Notes: a model not told the origin generated them from the sequence alone. A DNA stretch of 64,000 bases from an uncultured Candidatus Saccharibacteria bacterium (GCA_964406895.1 CAYOTK010000002.1:6004-70003), one strand, 5' to 3'. Shown: positions 9,777 to 41,103, counted from the stretch's first letter. A program made the numbers and translations.

Positions 9777-10745
9777 ATGAATATCAAAGATTTGTTCAAA
9801 ATATTACATAGTTGGGAGTTCCCTTTACTATTGAAAAAATTGATTGAGATAAGTTTTTTCGATACTCTTCAAGAAGAACTTTCTCTGAATAAATTAAAAG
9901 ATATTTATCATTTTAAAGAAGACAAGATGCGGGTCTTATTAGATGTCCTCGAAAGTCATGGACTTATTAGTATTGAGAATGACAAAATCTCTCTTTCTGA
10001 ATTCTCGAAGAAATATCTCTTAAAAGATTCGAAATTTTACATTGGTTCATATATTGTGTGGAGAATTGAAGATTTGAAACACTGGGAAGTTAATATGTCT
10101 TCTGTTCTAAAAGGTAAAATGAAGACAGTTCATGGAGACTATCAGTATTTGGAATATACAGACAAGCACAAAGAAGCATTGGAGGGAATCGTGGTCGCTT
10201 GTTCCAAGGTTTATCCAGCTGAAGATTTTGCTCGCAAAATAAAAGATAATATTGTTATCAATGGGTCTCTGCTCGATTTGGGTTGTGGTACAGGATTTTG
10301 GGGATTGGCATTACAAAAAGAATTTCCAGACCTGAATTTAACCCTGTTTGATAGAGAAACTGATTTTATAAATATAAAAGAATCAGAATCAAATTTTAAA
10401 GAGAAGATATCAATAGTAAAAGGAGATATGTTTGAATCAGGTTCTCTTCCAAAGGCCAATAATGTTTTGGTTGCAAACGTCTTTATGGATTGGAGTGATG
10501 AGGTATTGATAAAAATGTTACAAAAGATAGTTAAAGAATGTAATCCTAATGTCTTATTGATTCATGAATTTGTCCTCGAGAAAGACATACCGTTTCTTAA
10601 TGAATATAATTTCTTTGCTCAGATGGAGACTCTGGGGAAGATTCGCAGTAAAGATTGGTGGTTTACTCAACTGAAGGTTTATTTCAAAAATATTGATTTT
10701 GTGCCATTAGAGTTTGGTTCGATGGCGATTATTTGTAGACAGTAA
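9777..10745 (+). CDS. class I SAM-dependent methyltransferase, O-methyltransferase-like, with N-terminal dimerisation/winged-helix region
   Basis: SAM motif I LLDLGCGTGFWG; preceded by an extended -10 tgttataat. Confidence 0.55.
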   Translation: MNIKDLFKILHSWEFPLLLKKLIEISFFDTLQEELSLNKLKDIYHFKEDKMRVLLDVLESHGLISIENDKISLSEFSKKYLLKDSKFYIGSYIVWRIEDLKHWEVNMSSVLKGKMKTVHGDYQYLEYTDKHKEALEGIVVACSKVYPAEDFARKIKDNIVINGSLLDLGCGTGFWGLALQKEFPDLNLTLFDRETDFINIKESESNFKEKISIVKGDMFESGSLPKANNVLVANVFMDWSDEVLIKMLQKIVKECNPNVLLIHEFVLEKDIPFLNEYNFFAQMETLGKIRSKDWWFTQLKVYFKNIDFVPLEFGSMAIICRQ

Positions 10746-10882: not shown

Positions 10883-11335
10883 TTGAAATACATTATAACG
10901 CACGGTGACAAGGAAAAGGGGCCGGATCCCGAACTGCACATTTTAGGAATCGCTCAGGTCGCCGGCTTGACCGTCCCTGAAGACGTCACGAACGTGATCG
11001 TCGGTACCGGACGTCGTTTCATTCAGACATGGGATACCGTCAAAAAATCCAAGACTCTGAACGTTGCGGTGAGGTACTCTCCGCTCTGCGGCTCCGCCGA
11101 CAGTGGCGAGAAGAGCGAGACCAGTTTCATGGTCACTCTCGCTGATGGAACCAGCGTGGGGATTGGTGACTACGTCGGTCTCATCGGTACTCCCGGGGTC
11201 GACCTCAAGTCTTGGTTGGACTCCTTGCCGGAGGGCACCCTCCTCATCGCCGGCCGAGAATTTCTCGGTGCCATCGGATACACTGAGGGAAAGACCGGCA
11301 CCCTCTACAAGTACAGTGAGGGCCGGATTGTGTGA
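10883..11335 (+). CDS. hypothetical protein in a GC-rich island (weak SixA / histidine-phosphatase-like N-terminus with THG in place of RHG)
   Basis: MKYIITHGDK... resembles the start of SixA-type phosphatases; local GC is far above the flanks. Confidence 0.3.
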   Translation: MKYIITHGDKEKGPDPELHILGIAQVAGLTVPEDVTNVIVGTGRRFIQTWDTVKKSKTLNVAVRYSPLCGSADSGEKSETSFMVTLADGTSVGIGDYVGLIGTPGVDLKSWLDSLPEGTLLIAGREFLGAIGYTEGKTGTLYKYSEGRIV

Positions 11336-11473
11336 GAACACGGGGCTGCGCTCGCCGAATACCGGCGGGTCGCGGCCCTTTTTGATTTTACTGACACTTC
11401 CAAAGATTATTCTGAACTAGTTTGAAAAATTAAAACTGTACTACTTTTCCCAAAAATATGTTAAATTTTATAT

Positions 11474-13894
11474 ATGAAATACACCAAATTATTTCGTGAA
11501 TTAAACAGGAATGATGCGTCAATAGCAGGAGGAAAGGGCGCGTCTTTGGGAGAAATGTTAAATGCGGGCATACCTGTTCCTGATGGTTATGTGGTACTTT
11601 CCACCACCTTTGATAAATTCATTGAAGATACTGATTTGGTTCAAGAAATAGACGCAATTTTAGACAGTGTGGATCACAAAGAAATTCATACTGTAGAGGG
11701 TGCATCCGAGAAAATAAAAGGTCTCATTTTGTCGCGTGAAATGCCTCACGATATAGCGGAAGAAATAAAAACAAATTTCAAAAGTTTGGATACGAAGTTT
11801 GTTGCCGTTCGTTCCTCAGCTACAGCAGAAGATGGTGCTGAACACGCTTGGGCAGGACAGCTCGAATCATATTTGAATACGACCGATAAGGATTTGTTAG
11901 ATAAAGTCAAACATTGCTGGGCTTCACTTTTTACACCTCGCGCTATATTTTATCGTTTCGAGAAAGGCCTACACTCAACCAGGATATCCGTAGCAGTTGT
12001 GGTACAAAAGATGGTCGAATCAGAAGTTTCCGGCATTGCATTCTCGGTACATCCTGTGACTGAAGATCGCAATCAGTTGATCATTGAAGCGGGCTTCGGG
12101 CTGGGTGAAGCAATCGTCTCTGGTTCTGTAACGCCTGATAGTTATGTGGTCGAGAAAACTCCAAGAAGAGTGATCGACAAAAATATAAGCACACAAGAAA
12201 GAGGTTTATTTAGAGTTGAGACGGGTGGTAATGAATGGAGAACAATCAATGAACCGATGGCCTCGTCACAAGTTTTGGATGAGAAACAAATTTTTGATCT
12301 TTCAGAAATTATAGTTGGTATTGAGAATCACTATGGTTTTCCTTGTGATATAGAATGGGCATACGAAAAAGGTAAGTTTTATATTGTGCAAAGTAGGCCA
12401 ATTACGACGTTGAGTGCAATTGTAGAAAAAAAAGATTTGGCAGACGAATATCTTGAACGCATTGGAAATCGGAAATTGTATCCTCCATTGAACGGTTATT
12501 CTGCATTTTTGCAGGGATCAGAATATAATATCGAAAAGTATTTTGGCAAATGGTATGAAAATAAAGTAAGATATGATTTTTTTCTCCACATGAAAGACGG
12601 GTATTCGCAAGTTTGGTTACCAGAAGACGATATTCGAGGTGCTTCTGACTTTGGGCTACGAGAATACCTGAATAAATCAAAGTCATTTGATCGTAGAATT
12701 GATTTTATGGATGAAAGCATAAAATATATTGATAAGATATATACACAATATACTTACGAAAAGATTGATGGAACAAAGTTGGACAAACTATTCTTATTGG
12801 TAAATGAAGTTAGAGACATTATTTGGGATGTAAACGCCGCTGTATCATTTTCTATCTTTTTTGATAAGAAAATGTGTGAAAATATTCTTATTGATGAAAA
12901 GTACCCGATCACCTCAAATGAAATTGATATTTTGTGGGATAAGGCTGTGACGCCAGCATTTGAATCGTTCGACAAGGTTCAACTCTGTCATTTGTTGACC
13001 TTGATGAGTAAGCCTAGTAAATGGGAATCAGTTTTAGAGGAATGCCAGTATTTTTTGACAGATTATCATTCAGCCAAGACTTTATCAGAAATTGAAAAAG
13101 CATTGAAAGAAAGATATAAGAAATATATTGATGAACCAGGAAGCGTGAAAGAGACTCTCAAAACTGAGACTGAAGAAGTGGCCAGAATGATTTCTGAACA
13201 TAAAAAATGGCTATATACATTGCCGGAAAATGAAAAGAAAATTGCAAATTATCTTCAAACTGTGATGAAGGTCAGGGATAGAAGAAAGAACTTCTTTGCT
13301 AAAGGTATGACAATAATGTACAGAGTGGCAGAAAAAGTTTTCAGAGAAGCTGGTGTAGATCGAAATCTTATTCCTTATTATACAATCCGTGAACTTCTTA
13401 ATGGTGTCGATTATTTGAAATCTTCTGTTGATGATTTGAAAGATAGAAAAAACGGTTTCCAATGGCTCGTGCCGTATTCTGATCAACCAAAAAAGCAAAA
13501 TATAAATATTGATAGTGGAATACAAAAAATCAATAATTATTTCAAGGAGTGTCATTTAAGTGACAATAATTCCAGTGAAATTCAAGGTCAATGTGCTTAT
13601 AAAGGTGTTATTAAAGGTCGTGTTCGAATAGTATTGAATGTAAATTCGAATCATGGTTTTTCTGATGGTGAAGTGCTTGTTGCGGGAATGACTCGACCGG
13701 AGTATGTTCCGTTGATGAAAAAAGCTGCGGCAATCATTACAGACGAAGGTGGAATTACATGTCACGCTGCAATCGTTTCCCGCGAACTCAAGAAACCCTG
13801 CATTATCGGCACAAAGATCGCCACCAAAGTCCTGAAAGACGGCGATATGGTAGAGGTGGATGCGGATAAGGGGGTGGTAGTTATTCTTAAATAA
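11474..13894 (+). CDS. PEP-utilizing enzyme, PEP synthase / rifampicin phosphotransferase-like (ATP-grasp PPDK_N domain + central domain + C-terminal phosphohistidine swivel domain)
   Basis: N-terminus IAGGKGASLGEMLNAGIPVPDGYVV (PPDK N-terminal domain); C-terminus GGITCHAAIVSRELKKPCIIGT (PEP-utilizers mobile-domain His motif). Confidence 0.75.
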   Translation: MKYTKLFRELNRNDASIAGGKGASLGEMLNAGIPVPDGYVVLSTTFDKFIEDTDLVQEIDAILDSVDHKEIHTVEGASEKIKGLILSREMPHDIAEEIKTNFKSLDTKFVAVRSSATAEDGAEHAWAGQLESYLNTTDKDLLDKVKHCWASLFTPRAIFYRFEKGLHSTRISVAVVVQKMVESEVSGIAFSVHPVTEDRNQLIIEAGFGLGEAIVSGSVTPDSYVVEKTPRRVIDKNISTQERGLFRVETGGNEWRTINEPMASSQVLDEKQIFDLSEIIVGIENHYGFPCDIEWAYEKGKFYIVQSRPITTLSAIVEKKDLADEYLERIGNRKLYPPLNGYSAFLQGSEYNIEKYFGKWYENKVRYDFFLHMKDGYSQVWLPEDDIRGASDFGLREYLNKSKSFDRRIDFMDESIKYIDKIYTQYTYEKIDGTKLDKLFLLVNEVRDIIWDVNAAVSFSIFFDKKMCENILIDEKYPITSNEIDILWDKAVTPAFESFDKVQLCHLLTLMSKPSKWESVLEECQYFLTDYHSAKTLSEIEKALKERYKKYIDEPGSVKETLKTETEEVARMISEHKKWLYTLPENEKKIANYLQTVMKVRDRRKNFFAKGMTIMYRVAEKVFREAGVDRNLIPYYTIRELLNGVDYLKSSVDDLKDRKNGFQWLVPYSDQPKKQNINIDSGIQKINNYFKECHLSDNNSSEIQGQCAYKGVIKGRVRIVLNVNSNHGFSDGEVLVAGMTRPEYVPLMKKAAAIITDEGGITCHAAIVSRELKKPCIIGTKIATKVLKDGDMVEVDADKGVVVILK

Positions 13895-13895
13895 A

Positions 13896-14981
13896 ATGTC
13901 ATTAGAAAAACAACAAAAAATGGATGAAAAATGGCTTATTCCTCGAAAACGCTATGTTCCTTGTGTCTGGCCGTTCCATACTTATTGGGCATGGCCTGTA
14001 CACAAATATTTTGGTGTACCCACTACGGGAAAAGTTTTAAGTATTTGGGAAGATGGTGATTATACTGTGGTTTTTGATAAACATAAAACTGGTATAGATT
14101 TGGGAAATGCAATCACTGATAAGATTCTTACAGAGAAAAATGATTTAATAGGTTTTAGAGAGAAAGGCATTAAGGCAGGGGAAAATACAGTAATTTTTTG
14201 CAAGGAATTTTCCAAAAAATCAGAAAATTCATCTATTTCTGAATTTGTTGATTTTCTGAATGGATTCACCGAAAAGTATATAGTCATCATGAGAGATAAT
14301 ATGCATTACTGGGTAATGGGATCACCAATCATAGAAAAAATGATTCGTAACAATCTGTCGACTTTTGATGCAAATATCATAGATGAGATTTTTCACATAA
14401 TGGCTGTACCAATCGAAATGTCATATAGTAGCCTCATTGATTCAGAGTTGAAAAAGATATGTGATATGGCTCGACAAAATGGCATAGGGTTAGTCAAGGG
14501 AGACATAAAAAACTTCTCGCATAAATATTTTTGGTTCCCATATGAATATGTTGGACCTGGGATTTGGGATGATAAAACTGTGACCGGTCTAATCGAAACA
14601 GATATAAAAAAAGGTTCAAGCAATCATGTTGGTGCATCTGGTAGTGTAGAATTACAAAAAGAATGTGTCAAAAAATACTCTTTATCCCAACAAATAGTCG
14701 AATTATTCAAAATTCTTCAAACACTAGCCTTAATGTCTGATGATCGTAAAAGATATAACTCTGAAATATGTTATTATTTAAATGGAGTAATTTTCCCAAA
14801 TCTGGCAAAGAAGCTCGGTATAACTAGAGAGGAGGCTTTATATGTAGATCATGAATTCTTATCTTTATTTGAGAAAGATTCAATAACGTTCAGAAAACGA
14901 CTTAATAAAAGAACCGAGATGTTGGTAGAAATTACCGAAGATGGTGTTTATTCATGGTACGAGGGTAAAGAGGAATGTTAA
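13896..14981 (+). CDS. central (substrate-binding-like) domain paralog without swivel domain; apparently split from the next ORF
   Basis: Stop overlaps the start of the next ORF (taaatg); together the two ORFs reconstitute the central + His-domain architecture of the neighbouring paralogs. Confidence 0.4.
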   Translation: MSLEKQQKMDEKWLIPRKRYVPCVWPFHTYWAWPVHKYFGVPTTGKVLSIWEDGDYTVVFDKHKTGIDLGNAITDKILTEKNDLIGFREKGIKAGENTVIFCKEFSKKSENSSISEFVDFLNGFTEKYIVIMRDNMHYWVMGSPIIEKMIRNNLSTFDANIIDEIFHIMAVPIEMSYSSLIDSELKKICDMARQNGIGLVKGDIKNFSHKYFWFPYEYVGPGIWDDKTVTGLIETDIKKGSSNHVGASGSVELQKECVKKYSLSQQIVELFKILQTLALMSDDRKRYNSEICYYLNGVIFPNLAKKLGITREEALYVDHEFLSLFEKDSITFRKRLNKRTEMLVEITEDGVYSWYEGKEEC

Positions 14982-15347
14982 ATGTTATTAGATTCATTGG
15001 ATATTCACTTGAAAGTTGATGATAATATAAGAGAGATCAAGGGTCAGGTTGCTTTTAAAGGAAAAGTGATTGGCAAAGTCAGGATTTTGAAGACATCACA
15101 CGTTGATGATTTTGAAGAGGGAGATATTATAGTAACAGGCATGACAACACCAGATTTTGCACCGCTCATGAAAAAGGCTTCCGCGATTGTGACAAATGAG
15201 GGCGGTATCACATGTCATGCGGCTATAGTTTCTAGAGAATTGAAAATACCCTGTGTAATCGGCACAAAAATTGCTACTCAAGTTTTCAAAGACGGCGATA
15301 TGGTAGAGGTGGACGCGGATAAGGGGGTGGTGAAAATAATAAAATAA
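14982..15347 (+). CDS. stand-alone PEP-utilizing phosphohistidine swivel domain (121 aa)
   Basis: GMTTPDFAPLMKKASAIVTNEGGITCHAAIVSRELKIPCVIGTKIATQVFKDGDMVEVDADKGVVKIIK. Confidence 0.6.
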   Translation: MLLDSLDIHLKVDDNIREIKGQVAFKGKVIGKVRILKTSHVDDFEEGDIIVTGMTTPDFAPLMKKASAIVTNEGGITCHAAIVSRELKIPCVIGTKIATQVFKDGDMVEVDADKGVVKIIK

Positions 15348-15375
15348 TATGAATTTAAAATATTAATCTACTAAC

Positions 15376-16701
15376 ATGATTTTACCAAAAGAAAAATATC
15401 AAAAGACAGTCAAGAGACCGTATCCGCCATTATTGGGATCATTGGTGATTCAGGGTATAACGGATACAAAAGTTTATGACGGTTTTTTTTCTGTTCCGTT
15501 CGCCAGAAAGGATTCGGTCTTGTGTGACGGAGCTTGGTATAACAATGGTGAGGCGGAGGATTATGGTCGTGAATTGATATCCAAAGAATGGAATAATCAA
15601 AGTTCAATTGATTTCCTTTCAAAAGAGTGTCGTCGTAGGGAAAAAATTCTATTGGATTCAACAGACAAATCATTTGAAGTATATTCAAAAGCCTTTGAAA
15701 ATTATATGGTTGCACTCACTCTTGTATATTTGGCTGAAGTGCCTTTTTTCAATAAACTTAAAGAGATGCTTATGGAAAATTCGGATGAAATGCAGGCTAA
15801 GGAGTTGCTTGAGATTCTAAATACTCCATTTGAGGATAATTATCACAGAAAAGAAGAGTATGATTTGATTACATCGAATAATTTGACTGAACACGTAAAG
15901 AAATATGAATGGTTTCTTTCAAGATATGGTGCAGATGTGATTTATACAGTAGATAAGGCAAAGGAAAGATTATTATCTTTAGACAAGGATTTTTTGAGCA
16001 AATACAATATTTTAAAAGAGGAAGTTAAGACGGCAATAAAAAAAGCCAAGAACATTGTTGGGCAACAAAACAGTTATTTGGTTGACGGCCTACAATTCAT
16101 TGTTTTTTACAGAACACACAGAACTGATGTTATTAGTAGATCAATATTCATGCATAAAAAAGTATTGAATGATATTGCAAAAGCAAATTCATTGTTATAT
16201 GAAGATATTTTGTTTTGTCTTGAAGCTGAATTGATAAAAAAATCTATTCCCAGCGTAGATACAATTCAGGAAAGAAAAAAAGGTTATGTTATATATTCAG
16301 AAAATGGCCATATTATTTGCAAAATTGGTAAAGAGTTTGAAGATATAAGACGTGGCCTTGAAGACGATATTCAGACAGTGACTGAGTTGCGCGGTAATAG
16401 CGCTTCCAAAGGTAAATCTGTCGGAAGAGTTAAAATTATTAATAATTCTTTAGATTTTTCCAAAATAAATGATGGAGATATTTTGGTATCAAGCATGACT
16501 ACTCCTGAAATGGTTCCGATAATGAAAAAGTCATCTGCCTTCGTAACAGATGAAGGCGGCATAACTTGTCATGCGGCTATTGTTGCACGCGAACTTAAAA
16601 AACCCTGCATTATTGGCACAAAGATCGCCACCAAAGTCCTGAAAGACGGCGACATGGTAGAGGTGGATGCGGATAAGGGGGTGGTAAAAATAATAAAATA
16701 A
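15376..16701 (+). CDS. swivel-domain paralog: variable central domain + C-terminal PEP-utilizing His domain, no ATP-grasp domain
   Basis: ...ERKKGY... then MTTPEMVPIMKKSSAFVTDEGGITCHAAIVARELKKPCIIGT; no PPDK_N motifs. Confidence 0.65.
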   Translation: MILPKEKYQKTVKRPYPPLLGSLVIQGITDTKVYDGFFSVPFARKDSVLCDGAWYNNGEAEDYGRELISKEWNNQSSIDFLSKECRRREKILLDSTDKSFEVYSKAFENYMVALTLVYLAEVPFFNKLKEMLMENSDEMQAKELLEILNTPFEDNYHRKEEYDLITSNNLTEHVKKYEWFLSRYGADVIYTVDKAKERLLSLDKDFLSKYNILKEEVKTAIKKAKNIVGQQNSYLVDGLQFIVFYRTHRTDVISRSIFMHKKVLNDIAKANSLLYEDILFCLEAELIKKSIPSVDTIQERKKGYVIYSENGHIICKIGKEFEDIRRGLEDDIQTVTELRGNSASKGKSVGRVKIINNSLDFSKINDGDILVSSMTTPEMVPIMKKSSAFVTDEGGITCHAAIVARELKKPCIIGTKIATKVLKDGDMVEVDADKGVVKIIK

Positions 16702-16702
16702 T

Positions 16703-18205
16703 ATGAATTATAAAAATGACAAAAGAATATTAAATGTTCAAAGCTCATATTCAAAAGAGCAAATACAGGAGGTCTTAAAAAGAACATGGTTTAAGGTTGT
16801 GCGAAGAGAAAATACCCCTCTATGGGAATCCCTGATTCAAGCTGGAGGAGCTTTGAGCCGTGAAGATATCGGATTTGAGAATCCTATGTCAGATCTTTAT
16901 GCTCTTGATTATGACAAATATGCGGCCGAGGACGATTTTAAGGAATTAAAAAGACAATTTATCGAGGCTTGCAAAAATGATTCCAATTTTTTAACAAATT
17001 TTTTCAAATACCTTGAGGATAAATGCAAGGAATTTGATGATTTTGTTTTGCAAAATGAAATAAATGAGTGGGGTAAGTTGGATAACAAAGAACTTGGTTT
17101 TATTTACGACAAATTTGCAAATTTTTCCTTAGAAGTTTTGATTTTTTTGTGGCCTCCACTTGGACCAGAGGAGTGGATAGTTGAAAAGATATCTAGTGAA
17201 CTTTCGAAACGAATTGATCCAGTTAATCAGTATAATGATAATCAAAAAGCTTTTGACATATTAATTTCTTCTGAAATTCCTTCATTAATTCAAGAACGAG
17301 AGTTTGAGATTCTTAAACTTGCTACGAAGGTAGGGGATATCAATAAAATTCCTGAGTTTAAAAATGAAATTGAGTTAGTTTATCGAAGATATGCTTGGAT
17401 AAACGATCATTCTTTGAAATTTGAGTTTGAAAGCTACATACATTTTGAGGAAGAATTAATTCAGGTCTTAAAAAATAATCCTAAAGAAAAACTTTCTCGA
17501 ATTAACGCTGAAAAAGAGAGTAAAAAGAAAGAAAAAATGGCTCTTTTGAATAATCTTAATCTTGGGAAAGATATTGAAAACTATATATACCAAGCATCAC
17601 ATTTACCACACTGGAGATTTCTTAGAACCGAAAAAAGCGTCGAAGCGGCGTATCGCTTGAGCGGAATGTTCAGGGAGTTAGAAAAAAGATTAGGTATAGA
17701 TCCTCTCTTGGCTTATTATTGGGAAATTGGACAGCTTCTGGATGGACAGAATGTTAATAAAGAAAATATTGAAGCTAGAAAAAACGGATATGGACTTATT
17801 ATTAGCACTGATCATATTGCTGACCTAGATACTGCATCAAGAAAAGTCCTAAAAGATGGAATCGAAAGTAAAATTGAATTGGGGAAAGTTATTAAAGGCA
17901 ATGTGGCGTGCAGAGGGTTTGTGAAGGGTAGGGTTAGAGTTCTTCATACTGTTAAAGGATTATCTACCTTTAAAGATGGTGAGATCCTTGTGACATCAAT
18001 GACAACTCCTGAATTTGTGCCAATTATGAGGATGGCTATTGCTATTATTACAGATGAGGGCGGAATAAGTTGTCATGCGGCCATTGTCTCTCGTGAGCTA
18101 AAGGTTCCATGTATAATTGGTACCAAAGTTGCAACTAAACTTCTGAAAAGCGGAGATAATGTAGAGGTTGATGCAAATAAGGGAATCGTAAAAATAATAA
18201 AATAA
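16703..18205 (+). CDS. swivel-domain paralog (central domain + PEP-utilizing His domain)
   Basis: ...ARKNGY... TDEGGISCHAAIVSRELKVPCIIGTKVATKLLKSGDNVEVDANKGIVKIIK. Confidence 0.65.
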   Translation: MNYKNDKRILNVQSSYSKEQIQEVLKRTWFKVVRRENTPLWESLIQAGGALSREDIGFENPMSDLYALDYDKYAAEDDFKELKRQFIEACKNDSNFLTNFFKYLEDKCKEFDDFVLQNEINEWGKLDNKELGFIYDKFANFSLEVLIFLWPPLGPEEWIVEKISSELSKRIDPVNQYNDNQKAFDILISSEIPSLIQEREFEILKLATKVGDINKIPEFKNEIELVYRRYAWINDHSLKFEFESYIHFEEELIQVLKNNPKEKLSRINAEKESKKKEKMALLNNLNLGKDIENYIYQASHLPHWRFLRTEKSVEAAYRLSGMFRELEKRLGIDPLLAYYWEIGQLLDGQNVNKENIEARKNGYGLIISTDHIADLDTASRKVLKDGIESKIELGKVIKGNVACRGFVKGRVRVLHTVKGLSTFKDGEILVTSMTTPEFVPIMRMAIAIITDEGGISCHAAIVSRELKVPCIIGTKVATKLLKSGDNVEVDANKGIVKIIK

Positions 18206-18207
18206 AC

Positions 18208-19206
18208 ATGACCAAACTTCATGAGCTTGTTCATCTCAGTGCACCACTAGTTTTTGCAGACTTGTTTACCGTTTGTGAAGGTGGTAGTCAATTCTTCTGG
18301 TCAAAAGAAAAAAGTCCAGAGGGTGTTGGGTGTTTGGCGTATAGAAAAAAAGATTTAGTATATTTTTATTACAATCCAGAATTAATTGATTGGAAAATGA
18401 CTGAGTCTAGTAAATTTGATGAGCAGATTTTACTTCAGAAATCTTCAGATGCCTTCAGTAAAATCAGGGAAATATTGATTAAAGAAAACCCCCTCAATAG
18501 AGAACAGTTAAAAGAATTTATCCCAGAAGTAATTTTATTCTGGAAATGGTTCGATGGTATCTGGTGGAGAATTGAATTTGCTGAAAAAAACAAAATCGAT
18601 TATGGGAATTTGATGTCACTTAGAAAAGAAACTGAATATTTCGTTCCTAGTCTTCGATTGGTAATTAGAAAATCATTCAAGGAGATTTTGGACAAAAGAT
18701 ACGAGCAGTATATTGATGTTCTTAGATTAAACGAGGTGCTTGAATCAAAATTACCCTCAATTGAAGAGTTAAATTCGAGACTCGAGAGTTATGTTGTTAT
18801 AAATGGGAAATTATTTAACAACATTGAGAGTGCACTGAAGGAATTTGATTTTGATATGCCGTTAGATGAGGTTGATCTTAATAGTAAAGAACTTCATGGA
18901 CAGTGTGCTTTCCCAGGCAGAGTCAAATCCAAAATAAAGATTGTTAATTCTGTTGACGATTTACACAAGTTTTCATCTGGCGATATTATTGTTTCTAGTA
19001 CTACAACACCAGATTTTCTTCCAATCATGAAGATATCAAAAGCCATAATTTCTGAACATGGTGGAATAATATGTCATGCAGCGATAACTTCTCGAGAACT
19101 AAAGATTCCATGTGTCGTCGGCGTTAAAAATGCAACAAAGATTCTAAAGGATGGTGACATGGTAGAAGTTGATGCGGATAGGGGGATTGTTAAGATAATA
19201 AAATGA
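18208..19206 (+). CDS. swivel-domain paralog (short central domain + PEP-utilizing His domain)
   Basis: SEHGGIICHAAITSRELKIPCVVGVKNATKILKDGDMVEVDADRGIVKIIK. Confidence 0.6.
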   Translation: MTKLHELVHLSAPLVFADLFTVCEGGSQFFWSKEKSPEGVGCLAYRKKDLVYFYYNPELIDWKMTESSKFDEQILLQKSSDAFSKIREILIKENPLNREQLKEFIPEVILFWKWFDGIWWRIEFAEKNKIDYGNLMSLRKETEYFVPSLRLVIRKSFKEILDKRYEQYIDVLRLNEVLESKLPSIEELNSRLESYVVINGKLFNNIESALKEFDFDMPLDEVDLNSKELHGQCAFPGRVKSKIKIVNSVDDLHKFSSGDIIVSSTTTPDFLPIMKISKAIISEHGGIICHAAITSRELKIPCVVGVKNATKILKDGDMVEVDADRGIVKIIK

Positions 19207-20492
19207 TAGACAAAAAATTAAAATTCAATATGCCTGTGTTGACGTATTTTTATAGTCCTGTAATGGAGGCAGCAAAGATCAAATATAAAAACGAATATAT
19301 TGTAGGAAAATGGTTTGTTCGATGTTCAAAAAATAAAGGATTTACTGGTGCTCTAGCCTTTGATAGCACATTTCTTGAACCGGGAAGAAGGTTTTTGAAT
19401 TTGCTCGACACTGATTTTGAGTTTGGTGATTATCTATATAACTGTTGCAAACAAGTTTCTCAAACAGCAGATAAACTTCAAACTATTTATATTAGCGATT
19501 TAACAAATAATAAAATCTCAAATTTAGATCTTTTTTATCCAGATTATAAGAAGGTATTTTCATTAGCGGTTGGATTTGGTTATTCCCTAGATTTTGCATT
19601 TGACGAATATATTAAAAAAAATAATATTAACCCATCAAATCTAGAGTCGGTTGGACTGTCATTCCAAAATCTAGAAAAAAATGAATTAAGAAAGATATTT
19701 CTTGAAAAAGATCAGGCGGAATTTGATAACAAAATGCGAGAACACATATTAAAATATTCGTGGCTTTTAAATAATTATGCTGGTGAACATTTGATTACAA
19801 AGGATTATTTTTTGAATAGAAAATCAGAGGTTTTAAATCATTCCTTTGTGGAAGATATAACAAAAAACTCTCAACCAAAAAATATCACTGAATGGATATC
19901 TTTCTTAACTTACGTGCGAGATGAAAGAAAGAGACTCAATCTTATAGCCACAGGACTCCTTGATCGATATTTGAAAAACGAATGTAGTAAATTGAATATT
20001 TCTAGAGACACTGCTGTTCTTTTAACAGTAGAAGAATTTGAAAAATTTAAAGAAAACATCAGTTTGATCCCTGAACGATTAGAAAGATTCATTAAGATCA
20101 CGCATGAGGGCTTGATAGATGTTTCTAGAAAAGAATGGGATGAAGCTTTCAAAGAAGAACTTATAACGTCAAGTGAAATTAGAGGTCAGATTGCTTCTAA
20201 GGGCACAGCTACAGGAAAAGTAAAAATTATTATTAATCGAGAGGATTTCGATAAATTACAAAATGGAGAAATTATTGTTGCTTCAATGACAAGACCAGAA
20301 TTTGCTCCTATTTTGAATAGATGTTCTGCTATAATAACAGACGAAGGAGGTGTCACTTGCCATGCAGCGATTGTAGCCAGGGAATTAAATATTCCTTGTA
20401 TTATTGGAACTCAAATAGCTACTGAGGTTTTGAAAGACGGCGATATGGTAGAAGTGGATGCGGATAAGGGTATTGTTAAGGTTATTATATAA
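19203..20492 (+). CDS. swivel-domain paralog (central domain + PEP-utilizing His domain)
   Basis: TDEGGVTCHAAIVARELNIPCIIGTQIATEVLKDGDMVEVDADKGIVKVII. Confidence 0.65.
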   Translation: MIDKKLKFNMPVLTYFYSPVMEAAKIKYKNEYIVGKWFVRCSKNKGFTGALAFDSTFLEPGRRFLNLLDTDFEFGDYLYNCCKQVSQTADKLQTIYISDLTNNKISNLDLFYPDYKKVFSLAVGFGYSLDFAFDEYIKKNNINPSNLESVGLSFQNLEKNELRKIFLEKDQAEFDNKMREHILKYSWLLNNYAGEHLITKDYFLNRKSEVLNHSFVEDITKNSQPKNITEWISFLTYVRDERKRLNLIATGLLDRYLKNECSKLNISRDTAVLLTVEEFEKFKENISLIPERLERFIKITHEGLIDVSRKEWDEAFKEELITSSEIRGQIASKGTATGKVKIIINREDFDKLQNGEIIVASMTRPEFAPILNRCSAIITDEGGVTCHAAIVARELNIPCIIGTQIATEVLKDGDMVEVDADKGIVKVII

Positions 20493-20500
20493 TTTATTTT

Positions 20501-21532
20501 ATGTGGAAAAAACTTGTAACAAGAGAATCGACATTCATTGAACGAACATTAAGGTTTGATGGATATTATGAGTTTCTGCCAAATCCATTTACCGTAAAAC
20601 AAAAGGATTTGTTGGCTATTTATAAGAATGGAATGACTACCCAATATGTCCAAACTGATGATTTTGAATCAAAGCTTGATTTTTTAAAACATGACTTGCA
20701 TGAAATCGGTTTTGAAAAAATAATAAATAAATGGGACTATATTTTTTATCAACTGGATGAGGTCTCACAAAAGCTAGCTAAGTCAGGTTTAATTGCTGAT
20801 TTGATAAGTTTCGGAAAATACTATAAACAATCTCGTGCAATTATTCTTTACGCATTTAATCTGGCTAAATTATTGAAAGGAGAGAATGAAAAAGATTCAA
20901 GGATAGATATATTGCAAAAGTACTATGATGAAGCCGAGGTTAAAAGTAGTAGATCTTGGTTAAAGATTCACCCTTTTGTTGAAAACATAAAGCATAAAAT
21001 GGCAGTTGGTGATGAAATTTATTCATATTCATTTGAGGAATTTTGTAATTTTTTATCAACTGGTGTAAAGATTGATAAAAAGATTCTTCGTGAACGAGAG
21101 GAATTATCAGTTATTTTAATTGATAATTATAAATATAATATTTACTTTGGAAGTGAGGCAGTAAAGATAATTAATACATTAAATATTGAGGATGACATTA
21201 TTACAGCTGGGGCTGAAATTAGTGGTACGGTTGTCTATAAAGGAAAAGTTTGTGGACGCGCAGTTATTATAAAATCAAAAGAAGATTATAAAAATATTCA
21301 AGACGGAGATGTATTGATTACTACAATGACTGATCCGTCAATGGTCAGTTATTTATCAAAAGTCGTCGCCATAGTTACGGATGAAGGCGGAATATTATGT
21401 CACGCATCTATTATTTCGCGAGAAATGAGAATACCATGTGTTATTGCGACAAGGTATGCTACTAGGGTTTTGAAAGAAGGCGACATGGTAGAGGTTGATG
21501 CGGATAAGGGAGTGGTGAGGATTATTAAGTAA
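20501..21532 (+). CDS. swivel-domain paralog (central domain + PEP-utilizing His domain)
   Basis: TDEGGILCHASIISREMRIPCVIATRYATRVLKEGDMVEVDADKGVVRIIK. Confidence 0.65.
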   Translation: MWKKLVTRESTFIERTLRFDGYYEFLPNPFTVKQKDLLAIYKNGMTTQYVQTDDFESKLDFLKHDLHEIGFEKIINKWDYIFYQLDEVSQKLAKSGLIADLISFGKYYKQSRAIILYAFNLAKLLKGENEKDSRIDILQKYYDEAEVKSSRSWLKIHPFVENIKHKMAVGDEIYSYSFEEFCNFLSTGVKIDKKILREREELSVILIDNYKYNIYFGSEAVKIINTLNIEDDIITAGAEISGTVVYKGKVCGRAVIIKSKEDYKNIQDGDVLITTMTDPSMVSYLSKVVAIVTDEGGILCHASIISREMRIPCVIATRYATRVLKEGDMVEVDADKGVVRIIK

Positions 21533-21547
21533 TATAGTTTAATTATT

Positions 21548-22426
21548 ATGACTATTGAAACACAAGAAGTTTTTGAAAGAAAAGAAAAAGGTAGTAATGT
21601 CGAAGTTCTTGTTAGATTTATGCGACATGGCGAACGCGATAAGGTGGGTAATCTTATAGATCTCGGTAGACAAATAACAAGACAACAAGCCGCAAATGAT
21701 GCAGAAAACATGGACAATGATTTTGATGCAGTCAAGGCTATTGGATCAGATGCTGGACCGAAAGGATCAACAAATATGGAAAGAGCCTTAGAGACAGCAC
21801 ATATTTATGCACAAGAAATAGCTGGTGACGATGCATTTAAAACACGAGTTAACTCTGTGTTGAGTTATGAGACATTAAAAAATCCCGTTCCTTATAACCA
21901 CGTTGAGATATACAATGCGAATTTACCGGCTAATTTCGAGTCTTTAAGAGGAGATGAATATGTACAGGCCGCAAAAAGGGCACAAAGTGCAGTTATAAAT
22001 CATTTGCTATCTCTCAACACTCCTGAGGCAAAAGTTTTTATAGATGAAGTCGCTGGAGCGTTCGCTCTTGTCATAGAACATTATATAGAGGTTGCAAAAA
22101 GGATAAATTCTGAATCAAAAGTACTAATACCCGCTGGTACTCATGGTGGTCTCATGGAGCTTTTGTTAAAAGAGGCTTTGGTCAGAGTTGATGGGGAAGG
22201 TAATAAAATTGTTGGTTTTAAAAATATTGATGAAATAGGTGGCGAATTCAATCCTTCAGAATCGTATGATGTTGATATTAGAACTGATGAGAAAGGCGAT
22301 ATTCTTCCTTTGAAAGTCTATTTTACTTCTCAATCTAGACCAAAAGGAGATATGTTTCTGGATTTAGACAAATTACACGCACTCAGTGAGTATTACAGGA
22401 GTATACATAAAGATGAAATCAGATAA
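21548..22426 (+). CDS. histidine phosphatase superfamily protein (phosphoglycerate-mutase-like) embedded in the swivel-domain array
   Basis: N-terminal RHGE-type motif VRFMRHGERDKVGNLIDLG. Confidence 0.5.
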   Translation: MTIETQEVFERKEKGSNVEVLVRFMRHGERDKVGNLIDLGRQITRQQAANDAENMDNDFDAVKAIGSDAGPKGSTNMERALETAHIYAQEIAGDDAFKTRVNSVLSYETLKNPVPYNHVEIYNANLPANFESLRGDEYVQAAKRAQSAVINHLLSLNTPEAKVFIDEVAGAFALVIEHYIEVAKRINSESKVLIPAGTHGGLMELLLKEALVRVDGEGNKIVGFKNIDEIGGEFNPSESYDVDIRTDEKGDILPLKVYFTSQSRPKGDMFLDLDKLHALSEYYRSIHKDEIR

Positions 22427-23831
22427 AATAAAACCAAATTGGCTAAAAGTCGTCTCATTTAAGACCGAGCTTCTTTCTGAATATTTGATTCATAAGGGGT
22501 ATAGGGAAGATCTGCCAAAATTATTACCCCGAATCGGTTTGTTGAGAAATCGTATGATTATCGACAACGATATTTATGTGGACTTGAATGAGGTTAATGA
22601 AGTATCAAAAATTTTATCTAAAGATTTAATTTCTTATGCTGACGAAGCCTATTCTGCTATTGAGGCGCAGTCTACAAAATTACTTATTATTTCCAATAAG
22701 ATTAGAAAGAGTGATATTTTTTCATTTTCCAATCAAGATTTAATAGATTATTTGAAAGATTTTTTCGCTGAGTACAAATGTGCTCTTGGTGCAATTGGAA
22801 TTCCAACCATTATTGATCTGACTATAGAACCGAAAATAAAAGAATATTTAAGAACTTCCGAAATTAAAAATGTCGACGAAGCTTTTGGTGTGCTTGCTAT
22901 TTCAGAAAGAACCATAGCAACAAATCAAGAATCTATGGATCTTATTGATATTGCAATTGAAAAGAGTAGCGATAGAGATTTTGTAAATTGCGTAGAAAAA
23001 CACAATCAAAAATATGGCTGGTTGCACTCGACATTGTTTTTGGGTGATGAGTATACAGAGTCAAAAATAGTCGATGAAATAAACAGTATTGGCAATCCCA
23101 TTATAGAAAAAGAACATATTATTGGTGAACGCAGAAGACAAATTGCTGAAACAGAAAATATGATTGAGCGCATATCGTCTGAAGAGGGAAAATCTCTCGC
23201 AAGATTCTTTCAGAAGGCGGTATATTTTCGAACTGCACGGCTCGAATGGCTGAATCAGGCCTGTTTTGCAATGCGTCCAGTAATGAACGAGATTGCTTCT
23301 AGACTAAAAATCAACTTTGATGACCTTATTTATCTTTATCCGGAGGAAATATATAAATTACTATCTCAGCCATCTTTATTAAATAAGGAGGTTATAAATG
23401 AGCGTAAAAAAGGTTATGCTTTTATCTCAGATGATAGTCATGAATATGCTCTGTTCACCGGACAGCATCTCATGGAATGGAAAGAAAAATTTTCAGTTAA
23501 AATAGACATGGGCGTAATCAAAGGGACCGTTGCATGCAAGGGCAAAGTAAGGGGTCGCGTTGTTCTGATGAAAGATCGCTCAGAATTAAGTAAGATTCAT
23601 TTTGGAGATATTATGGTTACACCACTGACTACACCTGATTTTGTTGTTGCAATGAAGAAATCAAGTGCAATTGTTACAGATCTTGGAGGAATGACTTCTC
23701 ATGCCGCTATTGTTTCTCGTGAATTGGGAATTCCTTGTATTGTGGGAACGAAGAATGCAACAAGAATTTTGAAAGACGGTGACATGGTAGAAGTAGATGC
23801 GAATAACGGAGTCGTAAATATTCTTAAATAA
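22413..23831 (+). CDS. swivel-domain paralog (central domain + PEP-utilizing His domain); ORF track start is 22386, Met at ~22413 is more likely
   Basis: ...ERKKGY... TDLGGMTSHAAIVSRELGIPCIVGTKNATRILKDGDMVEVDANNGVVNILK. Confidence 0.65.
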   Translation: MKSDKIKPNWLKVVSFKTELLSEYLIHKGYREDLPKLLPRIGLLRNRMIIDNDIYVDLNEVNEVSKILSKDLISYADEAYSAIEAQSTKLLIISNKIRKSDIFSFSNQDLIDYLKDFFAEYKCALGAIGIPTIIDLTIEPKIKEYLRTSEIKNVDEAFGVLAISERTIATNQESMDLIDIAIEKSSDRDFVNCVEKHNQKYGWLHSTLFLGDEYTESKIVDEINSIGNPIIEKEHIIGERRRQIAETENMIERISSEEGKSLARFFQKAVYFRTARLEWLNQACFAMRPVMNEIASRLKINFDDLIYLYPEEIYKLLSQPSLLNKEVINERKKGYAFISDDSHEYALFTGQHLMEWKEKFSVKIDMGVIKGTVACKGKVRGRVVLMKDRSELSKIHFGDIMVTPLTTPDFVVAMKKSSAIVTDLGGMTSHAAIVSRELGIPCIVGTKNATRILKDGDMVEVDANNGVVNILK

Positions 23832-23832
23832 A

Positions 23833-24519
23833 ATGAAAAAAGTACTTATAACAGGTGGTAGTGATGGACTTGGAAAAATGCTGGCGAAGATTCTTGTTTC
23901 GAGCAAGAAGTACAAAGTTATTATTCTTTCTAGGGATGAAAAGAATACAAAGCAAGTTGCAAAACAGATTGGTTGTGATTATGTTGTTGCTGATGTTGCT
24001 GATTATTCACAGGTCAAATCTGCTATTTCTAAAGTCATGAATAAGCACGAATCTATCGATTGTCTCGTAAATAATGCCGGGGTTTGGATTCAGGGCCCAT
24101 TGGAATCAAATGATCCAAAAGAAATTGAAAAAGTTATGAGAATAAATTCAATTGGAGTAATAAATATAACGCACGCAGTTCTTCCTTTCATGAAAAAAAT
24201 AAAGTCTGGAAGAATTATTAATGTAATATCGCAGGCTGGTCTATATGGAAAATCAGAGCGTAGTGTTTATACTGCTTCAAAGTTTGCCATAACTGGACTT
24301 ACAAAGGCAATGGATTTGGAGCTCTCACCCTTCGGTATTTCTGTGGTTGGTTTTTATCCAGGTGCTATGAAGACTGACTTTTTTGCAAAAGTTAAAATTA
24401 ATAAAGATATGTCCGGTTATATGGATATAAAAGACGTGGCGAATGCGCTTAAGTTTATCATTGAAATTCCTGAAGGTTTGACAGTGCCAGAATTTGGATT
24501 GAGGTCATTGAAACAGTAG
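23833..24519 (+). CDS. short-chain dehydrogenase/reductase (SDR)
   Basis: NAD(P)-binding ITGGSDGLGK, catalytic YTASK (YxxxK). Confidence 0.7.
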   Translation: MKKVLITGGSDGLGKMLAKILVSSKKYKVIILSRDEKNTKQVAKQIGCDYVVADVADYSQVKSAISKVMNKHESIDCLVNNAGVWIQGPLESNDPKEIEKVMRINSIGVINITHAVLPFMKKIKSGRIINVISQAGLYGKSERSVYTASKFAITGLTKAMDLELSPFGISVVGFYPGAMKTDFFAKVKINKDMSGYMDIKDVANALKFIIEIPEGLTVPEFGLRSLKQ

Positions 24520-24715
24520 GGCGGTAATATTTTATTTGTTTTTGGATTTTGAGTAATAATTTTGAAAGGTAAAAAAGAGAATTTATAATATAAAAAGAAA
24601 AGGGTGCCTTAGGTAGTTAACCGTTTGGACCCCTTTTCGTCTGAATGTCTATATGTTAGCAGATTAAGATTAATTGTCAACATTACCATTTTTAACTATG
24701 CTATAATACCCCTCC

Positions 24716-25531
24716 ATGTCCACCTCACCCAACGACCACACCATAACAGTTTCAAACTTATCCAAAACCTTCAATGGCACATTCGTAGCCGTGAATGATG
24801 TCAGTTTCGAAGTGCCCAGTGGTTCGACTTTTGCATTCTTGGGACCAAACGGAGCGGGCAAGACGACGACGATCAAGATGCTCACTACACTTCTCCAGCC
24901 AAGTTCAGGCACAATATCTGTGAATGGTTATGATCCAGTCAAACACCCATCAGAAGTCAGAAGGTCATTTGGTATAGTTTTCCAAGATCCATCACTCGAT
25001 GATGAACTCACCGCTTATGAAAATATGTTTTTGCATGCCGGTTTGTATGGTGTCCCGAGAAATGAAACGAAAGAATCGATTGAGAAACTCTTGAATTTCG
25101 TCGAGCTTTGGGATCGCAAAGATAGTTTGGTAAAAACTTTTTCCGGAGGAATGAAAAGGCGTTTGGAAATAGCGCGTGGATTACTACATACGCCGGCGGT
25201 TTTATTCTTAGACGAGCCGACAGTAGGACTCGATCCACAGACTCGCAATCATATCTGGCAGTACATAAAGAAATTGAACAAAGAGAGAGGACTAACGGTT
25301 TTCTTCACGACACATTATATGGACGAAGTAGAGCGTGTGGCAGATAGGGTCGCTATAATCGATCATGGTAAGCTCATCGCAAATGATACCGTGCAAAATA
25401 TTATAAGCAAGGCAAATGCTACGACTCTAGAAGAAGCATTCATCAAACTCACTGGCCATGAAATGCGCAATGAAGAGGCGAGTGCAGTCGATAGTATGAG
25501 GCAGATGCGCAAGGTTTGGGGTAGAAGATAA
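24716..25531 (+). CDS. ABC transporter ATP-binding protein (ABC-2 type)
   Basis: Walker A GPNGAGKTTT, signature FSGGMKRRLEIA, Walker B LFLDEPTVGLD; extended -10 tgctataat at ~24694. Confidence 0.8.
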   Translation: MSTSPNDHTITVSNLSKTFNGTFVAVNDVSFEVPSGSTFAFLGPNGAGKTTTIKMLTTLLQPSSGTISVNGYDPVKHPSEVRRSFGIVFQDPSLDDELTAYENMFLHAGLYGVPRNETKESIEKLLNFVELWDRKDSLVKTFSGGMKRRLEIARGLLHTPAVLFLDEPTVGLDPQTRNHIWQYIKKLNKERGLTVFFTTHYMDEVERVADRVAIIDHGKLIANDTVQNIISKANATTLEEAFIKLTGHEMRNEEASAVDSMRQMRKVWGRR

Positions 25532-25535
25532 AAAC

Positions 25536-26294
25536 ATGCAAACAAATACATTTTATGCAATTTACATATTGTGGCTACGACAGATAAAGCGCTATTTCCG
25601 CTCCAAGTCGAGAATAATAGGCTCCCTCGGTCAACCAATACTTTTCCTTGTGGCGCTCGGCTTCGGTCTCAATTCTGTTTTCAAAGCTTCAGGCGAAGGC
25701 AACTATATACAATTCCTTTCCCCAGGAATAATTGCTATGAGCATTTTATTCACGGCAATTTTTTCTGGAATAGAAATCATTTGGGATAGGCAATTTGGTT
25801 TCCTGAAGGAGACTCTGGTCGCGCCTGTTTCTAGATTTACAATTATGTTTGGTCGTACGCTCGGTGGTGCAACGGTTGCATCATTCCAAGGAATTCTTGT
25901 TCTCATTATTTCTGTTTTGATTGGCTTCAGACCAGAATTGTCTCTCGTTATTCCTGCCATTATATTCATGGTTCTTATTGCTTTCGTCTTTACCGCTCTT
26001 GGTACCGCTATCGCTTCTATCCTAGAAGACATGCAAGGTTTCCAACTCATCATGAACTTCGTAGTCATGCCTGTTTTCTTCCTTTCCGGCTCGCTCTTTC
26101 CGCTCGACACAGCGCCGTCAGTGCTCAAATGGATAGCGACTTTCAATCCTCTGACTTATGGTGTTGATGGTCTGCGTTCTGCTCTCATAGGTGTTTCGCA
26201 TTTCAGTGCGTGGACTGATTTTGCCGTTCTCATAATAGTTGCAACACTATTCGTTAGTATCGGGGCGTGGTTGTTTTCGAAGATTAAGGTGTGA
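25536..26294 (+). CDS. ABC-2 family transporter permease
   Basis: ~6 predicted TM helices; immediately downstream of the ATPase. Confidence 0.65.
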   Translation: MQTNTFYAIYILWLRQIKRYFRSKSRIIGSLGQPILFLVALGFGLNSVFKASGEGNYIQFLSPGIIAMSILFTAIFSGIEIIWDRQFGFLKETLVAPVSRFTIMFGRTLGGATVASFQGILVLIISVLIGFRPELSLVIPAIIFMVLIAFVFTALGTAIASILEDMQGFQLIMNFVVMPVFFLSGSLFPLDTAPSVLKWIATFNPLTYGVDGLRSALIGVSHFSAWTDFAVLIIVATLFVSIGAWLFSKIKV

Positions 26295-26295
26295 T

Positions 26296-26332
26296 TTATT
26301 ATCGAGGTCGGACCTTTTAGAGGTCCGACCTC
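26296..26332 (+). terminator. perfect 12-bp stem hairpin (cgaggtcggacc ... ggtccgacctcg) after the ABC permease; probable terminator
   Basis: Inverted repeat read directly; the GGTCCGACC motif recurs twice more at 26392..26420. Confidence 0.45.
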
Positions 26333-26429
26333 GTATGATACTTTGACATCACAGTCCGTTGTGATATTATTATTTCTTATTATTCTAATATAGGTCCGAC
26401 CTTTTGAAGGTCCGACTTCTAACTAAAAA

Positions 26430-38092: not shown

Positions 38093-38108
38093 ATACGAAT
38101 AGATACGA

Positions 38109-41097: not shown

Positions 41098-41103
41098 ATT
41101 TAC

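Follow-up and report, generated by a model that had tools for sequence, protein, structure and literature searches.

Two-component dikinases have been described as HpeHI of Rhodococcus, CreHI of Corynebacterium, PpsAB of Thauera and Aromatoleum, and the homologous AcvAB pathway of Sphingobium (PMC12167813). PpsAB is a phenylphosphate synthase and in all these systems one subunit resembles the ATP-grasp of rifampin phosphotransferase (Rph) and the other resembles its rifampin (RIF)-binding and swivel domains (PMC12167813). In HpeHI, PpsAB and CreHI, both subunits are required for ATP-dependent phosphorylation and the swivel subunit is charged by the separate ATP-grasp protein, while HpeH alone performs phosphotransfer between phenolic compounds (PMC12167813). 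In Rph itself, the phosphotransfer site within the RIF-binding domain is made up of Arg666, Glu667 and Lys670; the Arg666Ala and Glu667Ala substitutions abolish inactivation (Stogios et al., PMC4844700), and Arg117 and Thr136 contact the nucleotide phosphates (PMC4844700). The subject of this analysis is a gene array encoding proteins related to these enzymes, located in a 64,000-nucleotide stretch of DNA from an uncultured Candidatus Saccharibacteria bacterium (GCA_964406895.1 CAYOTK010000002.1:6004-70003), the whole of which is referred to as the window. The locus (approximately 11474 to 24519), taken as one operon, probably encodes a hub-and-spoke battery of small-molecule dikinases in which a single ATP-grasp domain would serve a set of swivel-bearing acceptor units.

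Eleven plus-strand genes occupy positions 11474-24519 with intergenic gaps of -14 to +28 nt in the open reading frame (ORF) map, a tight spacing that fits co-transcription of the array. A preliminary description of this DNA had reported one full-length enzyme followed by paralogs without an ATP-grasp domain, and Pfam and tblastn searches confirm that array: g1 is full-length, six proteins combine a helical domain with a swivel, and a seventh such unit is split. Units with a central domain and a swivel and no ATP-grasp are designated S-type. The genes are as follows.

g1, 11474..13894, + strand, 806 aa: carries the only ATP-grasp of the window at its N-terminus and a His swivel at its C-terminus (both by Pfam), with a helical central domain between them.
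g2, 13896..14981, + strand, 361 aa: S-type central domain with no Pfam match, ending in TAA at 14979-14981.
g3, 14982..15347, + strand, 121 aa: swivel half of the g2/g3 unit, PEP-utilizers E 1.4e-27, catalytic His kept.
g4, 15376..16701, + strand, 441 aa: S-type unit with an Rph-RD-like central domain and a swivel; the Pfam match is the swivel only.
g5, 16703..18205, + strand, 500 aa: S-type unit; the Pfam match is the swivel only.
g6, 18208..19206, + strand, 332 aa: short S-type unit with a central domain of ~215 aa; Pfam swivel E 6e-24.
g7, 19203..20492, + strand, 429 aa: S-type unit; the Pfam match is the swivel only.
g8, 20501..21532, + strand, 343 aa: S-type unit of short length, whose central domain is a conserved helical bundle and has no Arg motif.
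g9, 21548..22426, + strand, 292 aa: the "P" component, a non-swivel gene interrupting the array, putative divergent member of the histidine-phosphatase superfamily.
g10, 22413..23831, + strand, 472 aa: the best-conserved S-type unit, with an Rph rifampin-binding-like domain and a swivel.
g11, 23833..24519, + strand, 228 aa: short-chain dehydrogenase (SDR), adh_short E 7e-53, beginning 1 nt past the g10 stop.

Across the whole 64 kb, tblastn identifies one ATP-grasp and eight swivels. The sole Pfam domain of g3, g4, g5, g6, g7, g8 and g10 is the C-terminal PEP-utilizers domain (E 1e-23 to 1e-27), and g2 has no match in Pfam, NCBIfam or PDB sequence searches. The phosphoenolpyruvate (PEP)/pyruvate-binding TIM-barrel PF02896 was not found by Pfam in any of the ten array proteins. 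The annotated ATG of g10 is located at 22413, and the ORF itself opens with a GTG at 22386. Promoter and terminator scans within the array gave no excess over shuffled expectation, and promoter-like and terminator-like sites are located downstream of g11 at 24562-24647.

The locus resembles HpeHI, CreHI and PpsAB in that g2/3, g4, g5, g7 and g10 share the architecture of the H/A subunits, and in that related arrays of other genomes hold a stand-alone ATP-grasp gene of ~310 aa. The earlier statement that known members of the family carry their own ATP-binding domain is incorrect, as PpsAB, CreHI and HpeHI are two-component dikinases (PMC12167813). Unlike these 1:1 pairs, the window contains one ATP-grasp for seven acceptor units (1:8 when counted in swivels), related arrays with a stand-alone ATP-grasp range from 1:5 to 1:10, and up to 10-12 or more acceptor units are found elsewhere. 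In addition, the ATP-grasp of the window forms one protein with an acceptor unit, the array encloses a histidine-phosphatase-like gene, and the hosts are Patescibacteria and DPANN archaea. The known pairs sit in aromatic-catabolism clusters beside carboxylases, whereas no carboxylase or aromatic-pathway genes were found near the array, where the neighbours encode an O-methyltransferase, the SDR and ABC transporters.

Among single-chain enzymes, the closest comparison is with Rph of Listeria (RPH-Lm; PDB 5FBS, 5FBT, 5FBU and 5HV1) and the "PEP synthase-like" PRK06241 family, whose three-domain order is found in g1 and on whose RIF-binding and swivel domains the model of g10 superposes with equivalents of Arg666 and Lys670 kept. 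The locus differs from Rph in that seven of the eight units are without ATP-grasp and that scores fall far under the NCBIfam Rph cut-offs. PEP synthase and pyruvate phosphate dikinase (PPDK) possess homologous ATP-grasp (PPDK_N) and swivel (PEP-utilizers) domains, but here PF02896 is absent, the swivel is C-terminal instead of central, and scores are below the equivalog cut-offs. The prodiginine ligases PigC, RedH and HapC exhibit the domain order of g1, and NCBIfam PigC/RedH profiles match g1 and reach the central domains of g4 and g10; however, these matches score ~70-320 bits against cut-offs of 1300-1350, there is no pigment pathway context, and PigC-type enzymes are single-chain. No description of the swivel-array arrangement in the candidate phyla radiation (CPR) or DPANN was found in the literature, of which coverage was incomplete, so that an earlier description is possible. 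The one-to-many layout looks new within the two-component and Rph-like dikinases, as an apparent novelty and not as a categorically new system.

The ATP-grasp region of g1 covers aa 1-321 (nt 11474-12436); within it, PPDK_N matches aa 17-321 (E 3e-96) and is covered from 3 to 320 of its 328 profile positions. A PEP-utilizers match is located at aa 730-800 (E 2e-25) and includes the sequence GGITCHAA, and the approximately 400 residues between the two domains have no Pfam match. The ATP-grasp aligns with RPH-Lm residues 4-322 (E 4.5e-62), with Arg117 kept and Thr136 replaced by Ser. In the central domain, MAFFT alignment places "VRDRRK" at the position of Rph Arg666/Glu667/Lys670; the hhalign probability of this domain against the central-domain profile of the g10 family is only 59%, and in L011, the corresponding locus of a sister strain, an S-type protein has a central domain 26.5% identical to it (E 2e-20). 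The top sequence matches of the g1 ATP-grasp and of all swivels are PEP synthases. The identification of g1 as a PEP synthase was rejected because the PEP-utilizers_C domain is absent and its scores are under the cut-offs (454 for NCBIfam PEP synthase, cut-off 598). Against the NCBIfam RIF_Ptrans_rph profile, g1 scores 349 bits, the cut-off being 999. The protein is proposed to be the hub that would charge its own swivel and all other swivels of the array.

All eight swivels keep the motif GG-x-x-[CS]-H-A-[AS] in the alignment, including the catalytic His, and the loss of this residue from most copies, raised earlier as a possible sign of a degenerate array, is not observed. The same description had called the swivels near-identical, which applies only to the last ~20 residues; over 121 aa the identity is 38-62%. 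The reported (E/A/D)RK(K/N)GY motif is clean in g1, g4, g5 and g10 but degenerate in g2, g6, g7 and g8. At the nucleotide level, most pairs exhibit 60-71% identity over the last 210 nt of swivel-coding sequence, and the same codon is used at a fraction of ~0.3-0.5 of identical swivel residues in most pairs, the highest value being 0.62 for g1 and g4. For most pairs, the view that the swivels are alike because of a recent tandem duplication or a wholesale gene conversion was rejected on these figures. The exception is g1, g3 and g4, whose 3' ends (13775-13894, 15228-15347 and 16582-16701) are 78-89% identical over 120 nt, against 65-76% for other pairs, with g1 and g4 matching exactly over 38 consecutive nt; these ends look like a local gene-conversion tract. 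On the nucleotide comparison, the swivels are old copies held alike by protein-level selection, and g1, g3 and g4 show a trace of local exchange.

The central domains are near-unrelated by BLASTP, where the top pair (g4 and g10) shows 27% identity with an E value of 7e-12. A search with the g10 central domain identified 39 proteins of ~430-490 aa, all with PF00391 only; these homologs are metagenomic, and the single organism-named one belongs to a metagenome-assembled genome (MAG) of Patescibacteria. An alignment of 34 g10 homologs contains many invariant central-domain residues, and the AlphaFold2 (AF2) model of g10 built on this alignment has a pLDDT of 92.9 and a pTM of 0.90. Foldseek analysis of the model identified the RPH-Lm structures 5fbu, 5fbs, 5fbt and 5hv1 as the sole full-length matches (E ~5e-16, TMq up to 0.62) at an identity of ~15-17%, the other matches covering the swivel only at a TMq of ~0.2. 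In the alignment of the g10-family profile to RPH-Lm 605-866, Rph Arg666 and Lys670 correspond to two invariant residues of the family, R273 and R276 ("YFRTARLEW"), and the position of Glu667 is occupied by Thr. The ERKKGY motif of the preliminary description aligns on Rph "NARKRDF".

This relationship extends to other units of the array. An R-x-x-R/K block is present in g1 (VRDRR), g4 (YRTHR), g5 (WRFLR), g7 (VRDER) and g10 (FRTAR) and is altered in g2 (SDDRKR) in the MAFFT alignment. Against the g10-family central profile, hhalign gives probabilities of 98.5% for g4, 97.5% for g5, with a match spanning almost the entire central domain, 89% for g2/3 and 83% for g7. The units g2/3, g4, g5, g7 and g10 each combine a RIF-binding-like domain with a His swivel in the absence of ATP-grasp, as do the H/A-type subunits, and the earlier concern that the central domains might be unrelated to each other does not apply to them, given the hhalign probabilities of 83-98.5% and the match of the g10 model to RPH-Lm. 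Most central domains are in this manner related to each other and to the rifampin-binding domain of Rph by hhalign and by Foldseek of g10, but the N-terminal central part of g6 and g8 could not be linked to them. For g6, matches to the NCBIfam Rph-like (PRK06241) profile reach ~60 aa upstream of the swivel. Within a locus, central domains reach a maximum of 32.5% identity among 162 swivel-only proteins from 44 loci, and because these domains are anciently diverged, a different acceptor would be expected for each unit. Conserved swivels beside near-unalignable central domains fit a common docking partner acting with different ligands.

The survey of related genomes suggested in the preliminary description was carried out as a scan of GTDB species genomes that gave more than 596 relatives. 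The same expansion recurs in MAGs of Patescibacteria and DPANN, with arrays or pairs making up about half of the 80 best loci. The Patescibacteria titles include Moranii-, Buchanan-, Uhr-, Nealson-, Taylor-, Komeili- and Magasanikbacteria, Paceibacterota, Saccharibacteria and Woesebacteria, and the DPANN titles include Woese-, Nano-, Iain-, Micr- and Pacearchaeota, one single-cell genome among them. A few record titles name other taxa, taken as provisional assignments. Five fully contained arrays, L014 (10 S genes and the ATP-grasp gene A313), L030 (9 S and A314), L031 (A316 and 7 S), L051 (A314 and 5 S) and L037 (4 S, A344 and 3 S), hold exactly one ATP-grasp gene. The L007 array is composed of six swivel-only genes and closes with a stand-alone ATP-grasp gene, and in L002 a 1114-aa ATP-grasp protein is paired with the ortholog of g10.

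Several relatives join these components in one polypeptide. The largest is an uninterrupted ORF of 3761 aa in a Woesearchaeota MAG (L013 2999-14284, JAFGGS010000004.1), which is composed of one N-terminal ATP-grasp and eight swivels; one of its modules is close to g10 (44% identity, central-domain hidden Markov model (HMM) E 1.5e-139), and it is flanked by a pyruvoyl-dependent arginine decarboxylase and tRNA synthetases. A 2019-aa ORF of a Nanoarchaeota genome (L045) contains one ATP-grasp and four swivels, and one ATP-grasp is fused to two swivels in L002, L015, L029 and L047. The g1 ATP-grasp shares 76% identity with its counterpart in the L002 fusion, a protein with two S modules that is located upstream of the g10 ortholog. 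Of the indirect evidence that one ATP-grasp may work with several acceptor modules, these fusions are the strongest. Together with the arrays that hold one ATP-grasp, the 1:2, 1:4 and 1:8 fusions strengthen the earlier suggestion that a single ATP-grasp could charge the paralogs in trans.

A phmmer search of 1.84 billion cluster representatives, with the central domain of g10 as query, gave 693 matches at E <= 1e-3. Among the best 150 of these, 138 are shorter than 700 aa, a length from which they are taken to be without ATP-grasp, and the long ones often match in 2-4 stretches. The paralogs tested each have conserved orthologs, and the orthologs of g8, g9 and g10 contain many invariant residues.

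The g9 gene (21548-22426) is located inside the array and was absent from the preliminary description. Its product has no Pfam match even at E 10 and no NCBIfam match, and its family profile is without a PDB match. The family consists of at least 134 homologs of ~290 aa without Pfam annotation; the few organism-named ones are from Patescibacteria, and two are labelled "phosphatase PhoE" by JGI. The invariant residues are R26-H27-G28, R79, E82 and H199, and they resemble the catalytic-core pattern of the histidine-phosphatase superfamily, in which the RHG motif is accompanied by a further Arg, an acidic position and a C-terminal His. Direct comparison of the family with PF00300 gave weak contact in three of 48 members (E >= 0.03). 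The g9-family HMM matches genes embedded in the arrays of L051 (E 2e-92) and of L007, L031 and L023 (~1e-9 to 1e-10). Of these, the P proteins of L031 (5e-10) and L007 (2e-10) are themselves above the Pfam His_Phos_1 (PF00300) cut-off of 21.7 bits, with scores of 26.7 and 30.3 bits respectively. P genes occur inside the arrays of L051, L031, L023, L007 and L015 and adjoin the L002 pair, which amounts to at least six other loci, and those of L015 and L002 are His_Phos_1 proteins. By these profile matches, a phosphatase-like partner is a recurring part of the system, usually adjoining a g10-type unit.

In the mechanism proposed for the array, the single ATP-grasp at the N-terminus of g1 would bind ATP and pyrophosphorylate the conserved swivel His, after which the gamma-phosphate would leave as inorganic phosphate (Pi) and His~P would remain. 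The ATP-grasp would charge the g1 swivel in cis and the swivels of g2/3, g4, g5, g6, g7, g8 and g10 in trans. Each charged swivel would then swing back onto its own helical domain, similar to the rifampin-binding domain of Rph, where the Arg/Lys pair equivalent to Rph Arg666/Lys670 would position the phosphate for transfer to the bound acceptor, with a different acceptor for each unit. The g9 protein might either dephosphorylate a product or intermediate or reset His~P.

A number of observations weigh against this mechanism. The R-x-x-R/K block was not found in g6 and g8 in the MAFFT alignment, and the hhalign comparisons of g6 and of the N-terminal half of g8 with the g10 family were not significant, so g6 and g8 may not be enzymes of the Rph type. 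As its ATP-grasp is fused to its own acceptor unit, g1 might serve only that unit. The view covers 64 kb of the genome, and a further ATP-grasp, for example of a PEP synthase, may exist elsewhere. Among the relatives, the array of L005 contains 12 or more tandem S genes with no ATP-grasp within 21 kb and runs off the locus, and L048 contains two ATP-grasps. The assignment of g9 as a putative member of the histidine-phosphatase superfamily is transitive.

In one alternative, the S proteins would be real acceptor subunits charged from outside the window, by a PEP synthase or PPDK, a stand-alone ATP-grasp or a donor resembling the phosphotransferase system (PTS), with g1 a self-contained Rph-like neighbour. 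This is consistent with the complete acceptor module that g1 owns, with the limit of the view to 64 kb and with the 12 S genes of L005 that have no ATP-grasp in 21 kb, but it is considered unlikely, given that contained arrays elsewhere hold exactly one ATP-grasp gene, at the edge or inside, that in single polypeptides one ATP-grasp is joined with 2, 4 or 8 S modules, that the g1 ATP-grasp shows 76% identity with that of the L002 fusion, which has two S modules and precedes the g10 ortholog, and that the set forms one tight operon. About the same low probability is given to a role of some or all of the ATP-grasp-less proteins as regulators or phosphoryl buffers, in which a ligand-sensing domain would act through the His~P state of its swivel, which would signal, compete for or throttle the hub in the manner of PEP synthase (PPS)-like regulators or of a phosphorelay, and g9 would reset that state as a phosphohistidine phosphatase. 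SixA, a phosphatase of this activity, belongs to the His_Phos_1 superfamily, and the P gene recurs in arrays. The missing phosphotransfer Arg block of g6 and g8 and the fusion of an L007 array member to a MerR DNA-binding domain point in the same direction, and a PPS-like regulator, PspR, is described from Haloferax (PMC10948481). Most units, however, keep the Rph-type phosphotransfer residues, the characterised relatives are all enzymes (PMC12167813), and the modelled g10 fold matches the substrate-binding domain of an enzyme. Seven or more parallel sensors would also be hard to rationalise in a minimal genome.

PPDK-type enzymes are reversible, and the battery could in principle run in the ATP-forming direction, with phosphorylated compounds from a host charging the swivel His and the ATP-grasp making ATP from AMP and Pi or pyrophosphate (PPi). 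The inferred energy-poor, symbiotic life of the hosts would suit such a function, as would the genes for phosphorylated metabolites (PTA, PGM/PMM) inside arrays of other genomes. It is very improbable all the same, as the ATP-grasp is closest to the PEP synthase and Rph types, both of them water dikinases, and in the described Rph reaction Pi is set free by hydrolysis (PMC4844700). Hardly credible, lastly, is the view of the paralogs as decaying tandem duplicates of g1 that have lost the ATP-grasp and persist as pseudogenes or neutral remnants. The premature stop in g2/g3 and the extreme divergence of the central domains could be cited for decay, but the stop is absent from L011, the other reading frames are all intact, His is kept in eight of eight swivels, and most of the family belongs to the length class without ATP-grasp (under 700 aa in 138 of the best 150 representatives). 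A pseudogene array was rejected on the conservation of the g8, g9 and g10 orthologs with their many invariant residues.

The array can also be followed between close strains. The flanks of L011 are 92-97% nucleotide-identical to the window, and g1, g2/3 and g8 exhibit 98-99.6% identity to their L011 counterparts, compared with 79% for g10 and 39% for g7 (positional). There is no L011 ortholog of g4 or g5, and the SDR gene g11 is also absent there. Window positions 15355-20250, from the central domain of g4 to that of g7, are alignable with L011 4307-7835 only in the swivel-coding segments, and the L011 interior encodes instead genes of 356, 429 and 466 aa. The comparison with L011 indicates a turnover of the array interior from one close strain to another, with the conserved swivel segments as breakpoints, which suggests cassette exchange via recombination at these segments. 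Interior turnover between flanks of 92-97% identity is typical of changing selection, such as that on host range, defence or resistance. It hints at a changing set of targets for the array, in which nutrients and toxins are not told apart. On the same comparison, g11 is a strain-specific passenger of the operon.

The split of g2/g3 was examined against the intact 483-aa gene of L011, which is 98.8% identical and differs by one in-frame CAA->TAA change. The stand-alone 121-aa swivel ORF of the preliminary description is accordingly not a designed module but the product of a single-nucleotide nonsense variant, and the split reflects, from this alignment, either a nonsense variant of very recent origin or a variant of the assembly. 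The ATG of g3 lies immediately 3' of the g2 TAA with a purine-rich AGAGGAA just upstream, and with this arrangement the g3 swivel could still be produced.

If the hub-and-spoke reading is correct, the 1:1 design of the known two-component dikinases would be extended to a one-to-many design, and the interface of symbiont and host would be expected to hold many phosphorylated metabolites or inactivated toxins that are as yet unexplored. A wider proposal, put forward tentatively, is that CPR bacteria and DPANN archaea share an undescribed modular system of one ATP-grasp "charger", an exchangeable and strain-variable set of up to a dozen swivel modules, encoded as an operon or a giant polypeptide, and a histidine-phosphatase-like partner. 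Such a system might let episymbionts with reduced genomes phosphorylate a wide and quickly changing range of host-derived or host-made small molecules, either nutrients that would be trapped or toxins and antibiotics that would be inactivated. Patescibacteria and DPANN have very small genomes in which most lineage-specific genes have no known function, and here about 12-13 kb of one operon is spent on a single enzyme system, with 20 kb or more, or one protein of 3761 aa, in relatives. The array proteins are soluble and modular, which opens the hypothesis to direct in vitro testing.

Other genes associated with the family were observed in the surveyed loci. The L007 array member mentioned above (11407-13053) encodes a 548-aa protein with an N-terminal MerR-type DNA-binding domain, a central domain and a swivel, a fusion that hints that some family members may regulate transcription. 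In L009 (10001-12106), a distant g10 homolog of 494 aa is located alone between dnaK and dnaJ and is followed by a 205-aa protein with a faint HD-domain match (E 0.12). Further array-embedded genes (L021 15379-16356; L025 1917-2891; L052 6564-7895; L030 15027-16160) encode an APH-family small-molecule kinase, a phosphate acetyltransferase (PTA), a phosphoglucomutase/phosphomannomutase (PGM/PMM) and a hexapeptide-repeat transferase. These embedded genes are possible, anecdotal hints to substrates.

Upstream of g1, the window encodes an O-methyltransferase (9777-10745) followed by an unannotated ORF of 150 aa (10883-11335), which also precedes the g1 ortholog in L011. Downstream of the array, the region 24716-28259 encodes an ABC ATPase with an ABC-2 permease, and a further ABC-ATPase protein that is 609 aa long. 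A conserved link between the array and the ABC-2 transporter was rejected, since the synteny is found in the sister strain L011 only and not in other genomes.

A prophage-like block is located at approximately 33085-50000. It includes a Sak4-like annealing protein, an O-like replication-initiation protein and two DNA methyltransferases. The block also encodes the large terminase (38644-40089), a fusion of portal and Mu F proteins (41104-43299), a minor tail protein and a head-tail adaptor, and its head protease and major head protein lie at 43321-45619. The window (1-64000) gave no tRNA genes. Over the same 1-64000 interval, nearly all sizeable ORFs are encoded on the plus strand, and the GC skew is positive throughout.

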